From Escherichia coli (GTDB lineage: Bacteria; Pseudomonadota; Gammaproteobacteria; Enterobacterales; Enterobacteriaceae): a DNA stretch of 64,000 nt. Of the stretch, positions 1 to 12,000 are shown in pieces. The stretch is from assembly GCF_965641715.1 (NCBI RefSeq), contig NZ_OZ282453.1. The stretch is one strand, 5' to 3'. Made by a program: the position numbers. Every line of letters starts with the position of its first letter. The stretch's first letter is position 1.

Positions 1-3000
1 TACAGAAAAATTTCAGCAGAACTTTGCGCTTGTCTTGCCTGACTGGCAGGTTGGCGTGAAACGAATGCTTAACGAATTATTTACGACTACAGCAATTTAA
101 TAGTTTTTGCATCTTGTTCGTGATGGTGGAGTAAGATGAATTAAAAGGAATGATGAAATGAAAACGCGTAAAGGTATTATTTTAGCGGGTGGTTCTGGTA
201 CTCGTCTTTATCCTGTGACTATGGCTGTCAGTAAACAGCTGTTACCGATTTATGATAAACCGATGATCTATTACCCGCTTTCTACACTGATGTTAGCGGG
301 TATTCGCGATATTTTGATTATCAGTACGCCACAGGATACTCCTCGTTTTCAACAACTGCTGGGTGACGGGAGCCAGTGGGGGCTAAATCTTCAGTACAAA
401 GTGCAACCGAGTCCAGATGGTCTTGCGCAGGCATTTATCATCGGTGAAGAGTTTATTGGTGGTGATGATTGTGCTTTGGTTCTTGGTGATAATATCTTCT
501 ACGGCCACGATCTGCCGAAGTTAATGGACGTAGCTGTTAACAAAGAAAGTGGTGCAACAGTATTTGCTTATCACGTTAATGATCCTGAACGTTATGGTGT
601 CGTTGAGTTTGATAAAAACGGTACGGCAATTAGTCTGGAAGAAAAACCGTTACAACCAAAAAGTAATTATGCGGTAACCGGGCTTTATTTCTATGATAAC
701 GACGTTGTCGAAATGGCGAAAAACCTTAAGCCTTCTGCCCGTGGTGAACTGGAAATTACCGATATTAACCGTATCTATATGGAGCAGGGGCGTTTATCCG
801 TTGCCATGATGGGGCGTGGTTATGCATGGCTGGATACGGGGACACATCAGAGTCTTATTGAAGCAAGCAACTTCATTGCCACCATTGAAGAGCGCCAGGG
901 ACTAAAGGTTTCCTGCCCAGAAGAAATTGCTTACCGTAAAGGGTTTATTGATGCAGAGCAGGTAAAAGCATTAGCTGAGCCGCTGAAAAAAAATGCTTAT
1001 GGCCAGTATCTGCTGAAAATGATTAAAGGTTATTAATAAAATGAACGTAATTAAAACAAAAATTCCAGATGTACTGATTTTTGAACCGAAAGTTTTTAGT
1101 GATGAGCGTGGTTTCTTTTTCGAGAGCTTTAACCAGAAGATTTTTGAGGAAGCTGTAGGCCGCAAAGTTGAATTTGTTCAGGATAACCATTCGAAGTCTA
1201 GTAAAGGTGTTTTACGCGGGCTGCATTATCAGTTGGAACCTTATGCACAAGGAAAATTGGTGCGCTGCGTTGTCGGTGAAGTTTTTGACGTAGCTGTTGA
1301 TATTCGTAAATCGTCATCTACTTTTGGCAAATGGGTTGGGGTGAATTTATCTTCTGAGAATAAGCGGCAATTGTGGATTCCTGAGGGATTTGCACATGGT
1401 TTTTTAGTGCTGAGTGAAACGGCGGAGTTTGTTTATAAAACAACAAATTTTTATTCGTATCCACATGAGCGTAGTATTATATGGAGTGATTCTAATATAA
1501 ATATAAGTTGGCCGCTCCCAAATAGTATGATAAATCTTTCTAAAAAAGATAAGATGGCACCAAATTTAAACATGGAAAATAAAATAAGTTGAAAAATTCA
1601 ATATTAACAAACATTTTTTCAATGTTCAGCATACAAGGTGTTAATTACATCATTCCTTTGGTGACAATTCCATATCTTGTTAGGGTTTTAGGGTTAGAGG
1701 TTTATGGTAAATATAGTATTATTTTGTCTGTGTTACAATATTTAGTGATAATTACTGATTATGGATTTAATTTGTCTGGAAGTAGGCAGATAGCATTAAG
1801 TCTAAATGATAAGAAAAAAATTTCAAAGATATTTTGTGCGATAATAATATGTAAGGTTATTATTGCTGCAATTTCATTCTTTTCTGTTTTCTTATTTATG
1901 GAATATAATGGTTCTTATAGCGCTTATGTTGAGTTATTTATAAGCGGAATGGGAATTGTTATAGGTACATCATTTTTCCCAGTATGGTTGTTTCAAGGGT
2001 ATGAACGCATGTATTGGATTGCTATCAGTAATTTATTTGCAAAAATTACCGGAGGCATCCTGATTTTTTTACTTGTCCACAATAACAGCGATCTTAATAT
2101 TGCTATTATTATTCAGAGTTGTACTTGTCTCATTTCTGCTGGGATTGCATTAACGACAGCAAGAATAGGGAAGTTTGTTTATTTTCTATGGCCTCCACTA
2201 TCCGAAATAAAAAAACAACTTAAACTGGGTTGGAATATTTTTTTATCGACATTTTTTAGTAGTATGTACACAACAAGCATACCATTGATACTTGGAGTTA
2301 ACGCCGGAGCGGAAGCAGTAGGCGTTTATAATTCCGCAGATAAACTCAAGCAAGCTCTGCAAGGAATAATAGGTCCTGTATCTCAAGCTATTTACCCGCG
2401 CTCAAGCCGTTTATTTTCGCACTCAATTAAGGATGGACTTTCCTTTGTAACAAAAGTCTCGATTTTCTTATGTTCATTTATGTTTCTATGCAGTGCAGTA
2501 GGTTTTTTTCTATCAGAATACATCGTTAATTTAGCCTTTGGTGCAGGACATGAGTCATCTGTTTCAGTATTAAAAATTATAATTTGGATACCATCAGTTG
2601 TTGCTGTTGCGAATATGTTAGGTGTTCAAATAATCTTACCTATGGGATTAACCAAAATCTTTGGCATGACTTATGTAGTTTTGGGAGGAATAGGATTAAT
2701 AATTATGTATGCCGCTTCATATTATGAGTCTTTCATTGGGGTGTCATATGCAGCGATATTAATAGAGATTATTATTACAGTAATCTTTTTGGCAGTTATT
2801 AAGAAGCGCATTAGAGGGAAAGAATGATTTATATATCTGTATGTATACCGACAAAAAATAGGCTTGACTATTTGACAAAAACAGTTGAGTCTATTATCAA
2901 TGATAACGTTGATGTTCATGCATATGAAATAGTTATTGCAGATAATTCTGACGATGATTTAACAGAAAAGTATGCAAGAGAATTAATGGATAGTGGGTAT

Positions 3001-9000: not shown

Positions 9001-12000
9001 ATTAATGTTGGTGGAATTATTTTAGAACCTAAAGGAAAAAATACAGCTCCAGCTGTTGCCCTTTCAGCCTTTTTTGTAAATAGATGTGAGATAAACTTAG
9101 AGAAGGATCCTGTCTTATTAGTGTTAGCTGCGGATCATGTTATTGATGATACGGATGGATTTTTAGCTGCAATAAATAGTGCTTTACCTCTTGCGCAGAA
9201 CGGTATGTTAGTGACTTTTGGTGTTGTTCCTACTCATCCTGAAACAGGATATGGATATATCCAGACTGGCAAGAAAATAATAGATAATTCATTTGAAATT
9301 ATTGATTTTAAAGAAAAGCCATCATTAGAAAAAGCGCAGGAATATTTAGATAGTAAAAACTATTTATGGAATAGTGGTATGTTTATGTTTCGTGCGTCTA
9401 CTTATTTAAATGAGTTGAAAAAATTCAGATCTGATATTTATGATGCTTGCTTTGATGCCATGAATTCCTCAAGTTTTGATTTTGATTTTGTTCATGTAAA
9501 TAAAGAAAATTTTTCATTGTGCTTATCTGAATCAATCGATTATGCTGTCATGGAGCAAACAGATAAAGGTGTTGTTGTCCCCATTGATATAGGATGGAGT
9601 GACATTGGTTCGTGGTCAGCTCTTTGGGATGTTTGTAGTAAAGATACTAATAATAATGTTATTAAAGGGGATGTCATAGATCATGATTCTCATAATTGTT
9701 TTATCATCGCTGAGACATCCTTAGTTACTACTATTGGTCTTAATAATCTTATTATTATTCAAAGCAATGATTCACTACTTATTGCTGACCGTCATTCTTC
9801 CCAAATGGTGAAGAATATAGTTGACGAACTCAAGGAAAAAGAACGTCATGAATATTATTTCCATTCGGAGGGATATCGGCCTTGGGGAAAATATAAAACA
9901 ATTGATACCGGGGAAAACTATCAAGTAAAACGAATTACTGTGAGGCCTGGAGGGAAACTATCAATGCAAATACATTATCATCGTGCTGAACATTGGGTTA
10001 TTGTCTCTGGTACAGCAAGAGTTATAGTTGATGGCAATACCAAATTGCTTAGAGAGAATGAATCTATATACATTCCTCAGGGATGTATTCATAGTTTAGA
10101 AAATCCAGGAGAAACTCCTCTCGATATAATAGAGGTTCGCTCAGGTGTTTATCTTGAAGACGATGATGTTGTGCGCTTTCAATAGTAGCTCTATTTTTTT
10201 TACAACAAACGTTTTGTTATAAAAATTATCATATGAAACAATTAACCTGCTTTAAAGCCTATGATATTCGCGGGAAATTAGGCGAAGAACTGAATGAAGA
10301 TATCGCCTGGCGTATTGGGCGCGCCTATGGCGAATTTCTCAAACCGAAAACCATTGTGTTAGGCGGTGATGTCCGCCTTACCAGCGAAACCTTAAAACTG
10401 GCGCTGGCGAAAGGTTTACAGGATGCGGGAGTCGACGTGCTGGATATTGGTATGTCCGGCACTGAAGAGATCTATTTCGCCACGTTCCATCTCGGCGTGG
10501 ATGGCGGCATTGAAGTTACCGCCAGCCATAATCCGATGGATTATAACGGCATGAAGCTGGTGCGCGAGGGGGCTCGCCCGATCAGCGGTGATACCGGACT
10601 GCGCGACGTCCAGCGTCTGGCAGAAGCCAACGACTTTCCTCCCGTCGATGAAACCAAACGCGGTCGCTATCAGCAAATCAATCTGCGTGACGCTTACGTT
10701 GATCACCTGTTCGGTTATATCAATGTCAAAAACCTCACGCCGCTCAAGCTGGTGATCAACTCCGGGAACGGCGCAGCGGGTCCGGTGGTGGACGCCATCG
10801 AAGCCCGCTTTAAAGCCCTCGGCGCACCTGTGGAATTAATCAAAGTACACAACATGCCGGATGGCAATTTCCCCAACGGTATTCCTAACCCGCTACTGCC
10901 GGAATGTCGCGACGATACTCGTAATGCGGTCATCAAACACGGCGCGGATATGGGCATTGCCTTTGATGGCGATTTTGACCGCTGCTTCCTGTTTGACGAA
11001 AAAGGGCAGTTTATTGAGGGCTACTACATTGTCGGCCTGTTGGCAGAAGCATTCCTCGAAAAAAATTCCGGCGCGAAGATCATCCACGATCCACGTCTCT
11101 CCTGGAACACCGTTGATGTGGTGACTGCCGCAGGCGGCACCCCGGTAATGTCGAAAACCGGACACGCCTTTATTAAAGAACGTATGCGCAAGGAAGACGC
11201 CATCTACGGTGGCGAAATGAGCGCCCACCATTACTTCCGTGATTTCGCTTACTGCGACAGCGGCATGATCCCGTGGCTGCTGGTCGCCGAACTGGTGTGC
11301 CTGAAAGGGAAAACGCTGGGCGAACTGGTACGCGACCGGATGGCAGCATTTCCGGCAAGCGGTGAGATCAACAGCAAACTGGCGGACCCCGTTGAGGCGA
11401 TTAACCGCGTGGAACAGCATTTTAGCCGTGAGGCTCTGGCGGTGGATCGCACCGATGGCATCAGCATGACCTTTGCCGACTGGCGCTTTAACCTGCGCAC
11501 CTCCAACACCGAACCGGTGGTGCGCCTGAATGTGGAATCGCGCGGTGATGTGCCGCTGATGGAAGAAAAAACAAAACTTATTCTTGAGTTACTGAGTAAG
11601 TAATTCAGTAATTTCATATAAATGGGTTTTAAAAAACGGAAAAGATGAGATATCCGGTGTGGTATAGCCAAGGTAATGCTATTCAGTATCTCTATGAGTG
11701 AGTTAACATCTATACCACATTTAAGCCGCACACTTGGCGGTGACCACCCCCTGACAGGAGTAAACAATGTCAAAGCAACAGATCGGCGTCGTCGGTATGG
11801 CAGTGATGGGGCGCAACCTTGCGCTCAACATCGAAAGCCGTGGTTATACCGTCTCTATTTTCAACCGTTCCCGTGAAAAGACGGAAGAAGTGATTGCCGA
11901 AAATCCAGGCAAGAAACTGGTTCCTTACTATACGGTGAAAGAGTTTGTTGAATCTCTGGAAACGCCTCGTCGCATCCTGTTAATGGTGAAAGCAGGTGCA

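Follow-up and report, generated by a model that had tools for sequence, protein, structure and literature searches.

Which O antigen does this Escherichia coli locus encode, and has its gene cluster been described before? The window, that is, the whole stretch of 64,000 nucleotides that we analysed, very probably holds the 3' two-thirds of a Wzx/Wzy-dependent O-antigen cluster of the Shigella dysenteriae serotype 17 type (formerly provisional 93-119 or SH-103), located at galF-gnd in an E. coli-like chromosome. The gene order in 1-11603 is rfbA, rfbC, wzx, GT2, wzy, hexapeptide acetyltransferase, GT2, GT4, GT4, manC and manB, and all eleven genes of the cluster are intact in the ORF scan of the window. 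ORF scanning combined with Pfam and NCBIfam searches recovered every reading frame that the first-pass annotation had listed, each in its place and with its proposed domain. The features are given below, with Pfam E values, NCBIfam bit scores and GC content where available.

1..100, + strand: 3' end of rfbD (dTDP-4-dehydrorhamnose reductase), placed by projecting the RefSeq features of the matching locus onto the window
158..1036, + strand: rfbA/rmlA, glucose-1-phosphate thymidylyltransferase (PF00483, 1.5e-82; NF012024, 678 bits, cut-off 588; 43.3% GC)
1041..1592, + strand: rfbC/rmlC, dTDP-4-dehydrorhamnose 3,5-epimerase (PF00908, 1.8e-75; TIGR01221, 274 bits; 36.4% GC)
1589..2827, + strand: wzx, O-unit flippase (PF01943, 1e-53; 32.8% GC)
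2824..3741, + strand: GT2 glycosyltransferase a, inverting family (PF00535, 1.2e-12; 28.5% GC)
3754..5064 (alternative start 3748), + strand: wzy, O-antigen polymerase, from identity to a deposit named 'Wzy' (27.3% GC, the lowest of the cluster)
5054..5614, + strand: hexapeptide-repeat acyltransferase, probable O-acetyltransferase of the O unit (PF00132, 6.9e-16; 33.5% GC)
5633..6562, + strand: GT2 glycosyltransferase b (PF00535, 1.3e-25; 29.6% GC)
6593..7699, + strand: GT4 glycosyltransferase a, retaining family (PF00534, 9.3e-23; 31.0% GC)
7725..8783, + strand: GT4 glycosyltransferase b, retaining family (PF00534, 1.3e-26; 30.2% GC)
8785..10185, + strand: manC, mannose-1-phosphate guanylyltransferase / mannose-6-phosphate isomerase (TIGR01479, 702 bits; 34.6% GC)
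10233..11603, + strand: manB, cpsG-like phosphomannomutase (NF011943, 1044 bits; 53.9% GC)
11767..13173, + strand: gnd, the conserved gene that bounds the O-antigen locus downstream, from annotation (50.1% GC)
13422..14588, + strand: ugd, UDP-glucose 6-dehydrogenase, which supplies UDP-GlcA (NF011631, 798 bits)
14654..15658, - strand: accessory NAD-dependent epimerase, probably a Gla/Uge-like UDP-glucuronate 4-epimerase, from PDB matches

The galF-gnd placement follows from the locus L004, which is 100% identical to the window, and from six complete genomes, in all of which galF, rfbB and rfbD lie directly upstream. The dTDP-L-rhamnose genes had been ascribed to the window as a set; rfbA and rfbC do lie within it, but rfbD contributes only its last 100 bases, and rfbB, together with most of rfbD, is visible upstream in L004. 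That locus also carries the ops element GGCGGTAG at the expected position, 79 bp upstream of rfbB and outside the window, although 14 of 100 shuffled sequences contained this 8-mer by chance. At the other end, the terminator scan placed a strong terminator at 13200-13226, 3' of gnd. The flanking 24 kb are colinear with E. coli genomes and free of IS insertions, the contig that matches the window is 678 kb long, and the host background resembles ordinary E. coli.

The serotype-specific core (1589-10185) has 30.9% GC against 48.8% for the remaining window, while 1-kb windows over 16-64 kb show 48.8 +/- 4.4% with a minimum of 37.2%. The AT-richness proposed for the block from rmlA to manC is therefore large and real, but its start had been set too far upstream: it lies at rfbC/wzx (about 1.04-1.6 kb), with rfbA still at 43.3%. 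Downstream, the serotype-specific block ends in a composition step at 10185/10233, the manC/manB junction, and manC is the final AT-rich gene. SNPs between carriers are concentrated in rfbA, manB and downstream (those of locus L003 cluster in manB), and the core is almost invariant. The low GC, the sharp manC/manB boundary and the SNP-rich flanks most likely reflect movement of the block from one lineage to another, through recombination in the genes on either side. These data support the proposal of a horizontally exchanged Wzx/Wzy-type cluster with dTDP-L-rhamnose and GDP-mannose genes, two GT2 and two GT4 transferases and an acetyltransferase.

Because group 1 or group 4 capsule genes can occupy the galF-gnd locus where the O antigen lies near his, as in the E. 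coli cluster L017 with its O8 genes, we also considered whether the product is a capsule-like K polysaccharide rather than an LPS O antigen, or whether the cluster is silent in this strain. The ORFs and the annotated features of this locus include neither wza-wzc nor wzm/wzt nor an initiating-transferase gene, and the lack of wza/wzb/wzc speaks against a capsule. Positions 16027-24233 are taken up by wzzB and the his operon, so the window lacks a further O-antigen cluster in the interval from wzzB to hisI. Since, in addition, the eleven genes are all intact and a Shigella serotype that can be agglutinated is determined by this rfb, the capsule-like or silent state is very improbable.

The identity of the cluster rests first on Wzx and Wzy. 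Wzx is 100% identical over 401 amino acids to UniProt A0A510B230_SHIDY ('putative O-antigen transporter'); RefSeq starts the gene at TTG 1589, and the S. dysenteriae deposit begins at an ATG 33 bases downstream. Wzy is 100% identical over 434 amino acids to A0A510B225_SHIDY, which its depositor named 'Wzy'. The S. dysenteriae deposit is probably the one described by Iguchi et al. 2020. In the UniProt 90% clusters of both proteins, the named members are either generic or S. dysenteriae only. The Wzy ORF matched nothing in Pfam or NCBIfam even at E<=10. It is polytopic, and its AF2 model (pLDDT 84.7) gave a sole meaningful PDB match, the WaaL ligase 7tpg (probability 1.00, E 2.3e-3, with a modest TM of 0.43-0.45). 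Wzy is a member of a small unannotated family, and on this model its fold is WaaL-like, as expected for a polymerase of the WaaL/Wzy superfamily.

The second line of evidence is the whole locus. In the lineage of the window the galF-to-gnd span measures 16,323 bp, of which 16,308 positions are identical to E. coli YSP8-1 (CP037910), that is, 99.9% with one gap and the same gene order. Yassine et al. (2022, Nat Commun 13:551, PMC8795385) reported that the 16.3-kb rfb of S. dysenteriae 17 is identical to YSP8-1 at 16,307 of 16,323 positions with one gap, that this rfb defines S. dysenteriae 17, and that the strains agglutinate with anti-93-119 serum. ShigaPass calls serotype 17 from this rfb. 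The S. dysenteriae 17 rfb thus shares with the window's lineage both the length of 16,323 bp and a near-equal relation to YSP8-1, and differs from it in that the host background here is E. coli-like; the link to the reference strain 93-119 runs via YSP8-1 and the S. dysenteriae UniProt deposit.

No serogroup had been thought assignable in the first-pass annotation, which had also taken it as the mark of a known cluster if both Wzx and Wzy matched a single established serogroup at more than 97% identity and the gene order agreed. The complete identity of both proteins and the 99.9% match of the 16.3-kb span to YSP8-1, itself matched by the S. dysenteriae 17 rfb, amount to exactly this, in Shigella and not in the E. 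coli O scheme. The cluster is therefore an ordinary one and, judged by its sequence, is already known genetically as the S. dysenteriae 17 type that also occurs in a few E. coli.

A genuinely undescribed locus, and with it a new serogroup, might be suspected from the annotation. For Wzx and Wzy alike, Pfam and NCBIfam offer no model that is specific to a serogroup, RefSeq names the genes generically here ('flippase' and 'hypothetical protein') whereas the O139 and O54 clusters receive serogroup names, and just 6 of the 5,426 complete E. coli genomes carry the cluster. Among the complete genomes, RefSeq labels and UniProt clusters compared, none linked it to a numbered O-group of E. coli, and Yassine et al. 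(PMC8795385) described the matching E. coli as 'non-serotyped'. However, the absent RefSeq label means little, because RefSeq leaves many other O clusters unlabelled, and the literature ties this rfb explicitly to S. dysenteriae 17. With the 100% identity of Wzx and Wzy, the YSP8-1 alignment and the published serotype 17 rfb, we rejected a new serogroup at the gene level and regard it as extremely unlikely.

Besides the six complete genomes, YSP8-1, 1504D004, 1604D011, 40EC, DETEC-S565 and ES5, about 200 public contigs contain the cluster, so it is rare but widespread. The gene order is identical on every contig examined, and the six carriers share it with the window, with serotype-specific cores 99.7-100% identical. 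The flanks of the carriers differ: over the full galF-to-gnd span, the intact copies are 98.8-99.9% identical to the lineage of the window; the ES5 copy has frameshifts throughout. For the accessory epimerase of the window, identity to complete E. coli genomes does not exceed 98.8%. Since the flanks and the epimerase of the carriers diverge, the block resides in several backgrounds. Beyond the six carriers, the matches listed among complete genomes are confined to the shared rfbA-rfbC end.

The supposition that the locus encodes something structurally undescribed fails for the genes but may still hold for the polymer, for which no published chemical structure was found in the literature searched. 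From the gene content we propose the following route. Transcription would depend on RfaH, start at the JUMPStart/ops site, pass through rfbBDAC and extend as far as manB. RmlABCD would provide dTDP-L-rhamnose, and ManC with ManB would provide GDP-mannose. WecA, encoded elsewhere, would start the unit by transferring GlcNAc-P onto undecaprenyl phosphate. The cluster contains neither an initiating transferase nor gne, and wcaM is followed directly by galF; according to the rule of Liu et al. (2019, PMC7685785), this lack of gnu between wcaM and galF points to GlcNAc as the initial sugar. Two inverting (GT2) and two retaining (GT4) transferases would add about four further residues, likely including alpha-L-Rha and alpha-D-Man, and the hexapeptide transferase would O-acetylate one residue. 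The unit would then be flipped by Wzx, polymerised by Wzy under chain-length control by WzzB, and ligated to lipid A-core by WaaL.

The individual enzymes specify this unit only broadly. All four transferases gave NCBIfam family-level matches far under the equivalog cut-offs. GT2b bears only an automated 'WfgD-like' label in public records, GT4a is 46% identical to a GT4 of L017, and GT4b shares 28-30% identity with the region of that cluster that encodes the O8 mannosyltransferases. The best NCBIfam model for the acyltransferase is WbbJ, at 134 bits, under the 243-bit equivalog cut-off; its sequence places it in the left-handed beta-helix type of the WbbJ superfamily, yet not as the WbbJ equivalog. 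The O-acetylated unit of about five sugars with rhamnose and mannose, as predicted from the genes, is a fair first guess. Liu et al. (2019, PMC7685785) noted that Rha- and Man-transferases often form more than one linkage and that many Rha- or Man-containing O units have a transferase number that does not match the unit size; because of this, the transferase count is no more than a rough guide to unit size.

The epimerase downstream of ugd may also bear on the composition. Although present in only 278 of 5,426 E. coli genomes (5%), the gene occurs in 8 of 8 loci carrying this O-antigen cluster and in a sister locus of Lelliottia, so it may belong to the cluster; GalA may then be in the O unit, and the predicted composition would perhaps be incomplete. 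It is conceivable, if somewhat doubtful, that the product is not a simple O-acetylated Rha/Man pentasaccharide, either because ugd and the epimerase add GalA or because a multi-linkage Rha- or Man-transferase alters the size. The mismatches reported by Liu et al. and their observation that UDP-GalA genes lie outside O clusters are in line with this, as is the second-best solved relative of the epimerase, the Bacillus cereus UDP-GlcA 4-epimerase GAE (6zl6, 150 bits). However, the closest structure, Klebsiella 5u4q (634 bits), is a dTDP-glucose 4,6-dehydratase by its depositors' name, no NCBIfam model attains its own cut-off on this protein, and the activity is thus a predicted one. Moreover, the same gene adjoins at least six other, unrelated clusters and lies 1.5 kb from gnd, so its co-occurrence with the cluster may be mere physical linkage, and none of the four transferases is assignable to GalA.

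Two sets of related loci were compared. The O139- and O54-labelled E. coli loci have the same location, pathway logic, rfbBDAC flank and downstream ugd-epimerase-wzzB arrangement, but their Wzx proteins are at most 27% identical to that of the window and Wzy shows no detectable similarity. Much closer is the sister cluster of Lelliottia amnigena and Lelliottia spp., which is fully syntenic, from galF and rfbBDAC through gnd and ugd to the minus-strand epimerase, and whose central genes are AT-rich as well. Its central proteins are 59-73% identical, with Wzy at 59% being the closest non-identical Wzy, and DNA identity in the housekeeping genes on its flanks is 76-86%. These values, from a different genus, suggest that the Lelliottia cluster probably encodes a related but distinct antigen.

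The genes from rfbA to manB occupy a single strand (+) with little space between them, and the minus-strand ORFs within this block are short and unsupported. The ORF list and domain scans reproduced the gene list and coordinates of the first-pass annotation, and the pathway and gene content that it had ascribed to an O-antigen cluster are correct. Among the dTDP-L-rhamnose genes that it had listed, rfbA and rfbC do lie in the window, but rfbB and most of rfbD are located upstream, and rfbD reaches into the window only with its last 100 bases.

Genes of the rfbA-manB block, from the ORF list and domain scans (candidate wzy, from the ORF list)
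158-1036, plus strand: rfbA
1041-1592, plus strand: rfbC
1589-2827, plus strand: wzx
2824-3741, plus strand: first GT2 glycosyltransferase
3748/3754-5064, plus strand: candidate wzy
5054-5614, plus strand: hexapeptide acyltransferase
5633-6562, plus strand: second GT2 glycosyltransferase
6593-7699, plus strand: GT4a glycosyltransferase
7725-8783, plus strand: GT4b glycosyltransferase
8785-10185, plus strand: manC
10233-11603, plus strand: manB

The start of wzx is ambiguous (1589-1622): RefSeq begins at TTG 1589 (412 aa), and the Shigella dysenteriae deposit begins 33 bases further on, at an ATG (401 aa). The same holds for wzy (3748-3760), for which the ORF finder takes TTG at 3748, RefSeq ATG at 3754 (436 aa), and the deposit ATG at 3760 (434 aa).

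The low GC content of this region is real and large, although the AT-rich block begins at rfbC/wzx and not at rfbA as first annotated. The core from wzx to manC (1589-10185) has a GC content of 30.9%, with single genes between 27.3 and 34.6%, against 48.8 +/- 4.4% for the remaining window in 1-kb windows, the lowest of which reaches 37.2%. The upstream edge is graded (rfbA, 43.3%; rfbC, 36.4%; wzx, 32.8%), whereas the downstream edge is sharp at 10185-10233, where GC rises from 34.6% in manC to 53.9% in manB. The latter scores as a colanic-acid-type cpsG (1044 bits), and in one carrier locus (L003) the SNPs are concentrated inside manB, at 10670-11207. The serotype block thus seems to have its downstream recombination edge at the manC/manB junction.

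By its sequence, the cluster falls within the ordinary Wzx/Wzy class at galF-gnd and corresponds gene for gene to the S. dysenteriae 17 type. When positions 1000-10300 were searched by megablast against 5,426 complete E. coli genomes, only six (1504D004, 1604D011, YSP8-1, 40EC, DETEC-S565, and ES5) carried the full block, at 99.7-100% identity, and the other genomes among the matches listed were limited to the conserved rfbA-rfbC end. In the carriers, RefSeq gives the order wcaM, galF, rfbB, rfbD, rfbA, rfbC, nine specific genes, manB, gnd, ugd, a minus-strand epimerase, wzzB, and hisIE. The sequence clusters of Wzx and Wzy, retrieved by exact look-up, cover ~180-250 public contigs and include UniProt entries from S. 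dysenteriae named "putative O-antigen transporter" (Wzx) and "Wzy," to which the window proteins are 100% identical, start-codon choice aside. According to the supplementary notes of Yassine et al. (2022, PMC8795385), the provisional S. dysenteriae 93-119 and SH-103 share one identical 16.3-kb rfb, which is dissimilar to other Shigella rfb clusters, matches the non-serotyped pig isolate E. coli YSP-8 (CP037910) at 16,307/16,323 positions with 1 gap, and defines the serotype named S. dysenteriae 17. CP037910 (YSP8-1) is among the genomes matched by the window block. The locus L004, which is 100% identical to the window across 15 kb, spans exactly 16,323 bp from galF to gnd and is identical to YSP8-1 at 16,308/16,323 positions, with 1 gap.

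The first-pass annotation had regarded the serogroup as unassignable and possibly undescribed, which is wrong at the gene level, as Wzx and Wzy are both 100% identical to the S. dysenteriae deposit. They therefore exceed 97% identity to one serogroup with the same gene order, the pattern it had named for a known cluster, in the Shigella scheme. Because the cluster has been deposited, named, and used for typing (ShigaPass calls serotype 17 from the 93-119-type rfb), and because it has been reported from E. coli, it is already known. We saw no sign of membership in a numbered E. coli O group, judging indirectly from its rarity, the RefSeq labels, the names of cluster members, and Yassine et al. 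(2022); the named members of the Wzx and Wzy clusters are generic or S. dysenteriae, and RefSeq puts no serogroup label on the cluster. The lack of an "Oxx family" label in RefSeq might be taken as a sign of novelty, but we rejected this weak evidence, since four other sampled O clusters are equally unlabelled. The literature search found no E. coli alias (OgN/Onovel) for the locus, and neither NCBIfam nor Pfam holds a serogroup-specific model for Wzx or Wzy.

The value of this assignment is diagnostic rather than conceptual, as E. coli with a Shigella serotype antigen can mislead rfb-based or serological typing. Cross-reaction with antisera to S. dysenteriae 17 is to be expected of E. coli carriers; rfb-based Shigella typing tools will call them unless markers such as ipaH are checked, and O-typing schemes lacking this type will report them as untypeable. 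The cluster has been recovered from pigs and humans in Canada, China, Singapore, and the UK. With several hosts and countries and ~200 public contigs, it is a minor but widespread O-type.

The candidate Wzy is polytopic, and neither Pfam nor NCBIfam matched it, even at E<=10. A search of 5.8 billion proteins returned only 25 relatives, all "hypothetical," and the nearest non-identical ones come from Lelliottia (59%), Edwardsiella (55%), Providencia (52%), and Proteus (48%). A model built from the alignment of these relatives was confident (pLDDT 84.7, pTM 0.88), and its sole meaningful PDB match was 7tpg, the O-antigen ligase WaaL (probability 1.00, E 2.3e-3, TM 0.43-0.45), the second match having E >1. 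The WaaL superfamily includes Wzy polymerases. Since the gene adjoins wzx, a polymerase is the sensible reading.

The family matches of the transferases all fell far under the equivalog cut-offs, and when they were compared by tblastn with six other E. coli O loci, no match was informative for donor specificity. The best were 46% between GT4a and an unlabelled GT4, and 28-30% between GT4b and the mannosyltransferase region of O8. The labels that public records assign automatically ("WfgD," "galactoside O-acetyltransferase," Pgl enzymes) were not taken as evidence. Rha- and Man-transferases often make more than one linkage (Liu et al. 2019, PMC7685785), so the pentasaccharide that the first-pass annotation had read from four transferases is only a first guess. 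As for the first sugar, the annotated loci lack gnu between wcaM and galF, as well as gne in the cluster, and by the rule summarised in the same review this points to GlcNAc.

In L004, an ops element, GGCGGTAG, precedes rfbB by 79 bp, and strong terminators are found downstream of gnd and of ugd. From the established Wzx/Wzy pathway, we infer that transcription of the operon would be assisted by RfaH, that RmlABCD would provide dTDP-L-Rha and ManC with ManB GDP-Man, and that WecA would prime undecaprenyl phosphate with GlcNAc-P. The unit would then be extended by the two GT2 enzymes (inverting) and the two GT4 enzymes (retaining); going by the stereochemistry of the CAZy families, alpha-D linkages, e.g., alpha-Man, would be expected from the GT4 pair and alpha-L-Rha or beta-D-hexose linkages from the GT2 pair. 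One residue would be O-acetylated by the hexapeptide enzyme, after which Wzx would flip the unit, Wzy polymerize it, WzzB set the modal length, and WaaL ligate the chain.

Between ugd and wzzB lies an accessory gene:
14654-15658, minus strand: NAD-dependent epimerase

Among PDB entries, it is closest to Klebsiella 5u4q (634 bits), followed by 6zl6, the UDP-glucuronate 4-epimerase of Bacillus cereus (150 bits). The gene occurs in 278 of the 5,426 E. coli genomes (5%) and stands beside the cluster in all eight carrier loci, as well as in a sister locus of Lelliottia. The epimerase and Ugd could supply UDP-GalA, in which case the antigen may contain GalA. Physical closeness by itself could account for the co-occurrence of epimerase and cluster, and the gene also adjoins at least six unrelated clusters (O139-labelled, O54-labelled, and four others). 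A literature search of limited reach found no chemical structure of the polysaccharide, an absence that is no proof. We lean toward the view that the polysaccharide of S. dysenteriae 17 and "non-serotyped" E. coli has never been chemically determined, that it may exceed an O-acetylated Rha-Man-GlcNAc unit, for instance by GalA through the always-linked ugd-epimerase pair, and that it would be polymerized by a Wzy of a small unannotated family (~25 sequence clusters) common to Lelliottia, Edwardsiella, Providencia, and Proteus. This structure is the sole residual novelty and its determination is routine; it would supply a missing entry in the catalogue of Shigella and E. coli O antigens and leave the understanding of the pathway unchanged. 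Between the epimerase and wzzB, the RefSeq annotation of each matching genome has a short pseudogene remnant that lacks its N-terminus (15800-15930), and a 17-base patch (15827-15843) diverges between the window and 1504D004.

Across the eight carriers the core is nearly invariant, and SNPs concentrate in rfbA, in manB, and downstream of ugd; the window epimerase is at most 98.8% identical to that of any complete E. coli genome. These comparisons argue that the block has moved between backgrounds by recombination in its flanks, the usual pattern of O-antigen loci. The Lelliottia sister cluster (L009, GCA_053586265.1, JBPJVE010000022.1, 3058-21314; also in two further loci, L010 and L011) is fully syntenic (galF, rfbBDAC, wzx, GT2, wzy, acetyltransferase, GT2, GT4, GT4, manCB, gnd, ugd, epimerase), with central proteins 59-73% identical to those of the window and flanking genes diverged at the genus level. 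This synteny indicates that the cluster architecture is old and common to Enterobacteriaceae. In the copy of E. coli ES5 (L008, NZ_CP133871.1, 7042-16124), wzx is interrupted by an internal stop, manC is frameshifted, and the GT2, wzy, and acetyltransferase genes are truncated, with 21 gaps relative to the window lineage. Either assembly errors at homopolymers in the AT-rich DNA or genuine decay of this locus could explain these defects.

The flank of the window is colinear with E. coli genomes and free of IS elements. Together with the 678-kb length of the matching contig, this makes an origin of the window in Shigella itself less likely. Over 40000-64000, the best full-length match among the 5,426 complete genomes, colinear and with no insertions, was just 98.6%, so it seems that the window lineage is not represented among them; the draft contig JACFHA010000002.1 matches the window at 100% across 15 kb. 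A very long ORF (49527-57605, minus strand, 2,692 aa) is annotated in matching E. coli genomes as an Ig-like domain or inverse autotransporter protein (YeeJ-type adhesin). In E. coli 1297KP (L017, NZ_CM173856.1, 16597-29005), a Wzx/Wzy-type cluster at galF-gnd accompanies an O8-type wzm/wzt mannan cluster inserted at a disrupted hisIE, which is the layout expected where a group 1/4 capsule coexists with an O8 antigen.
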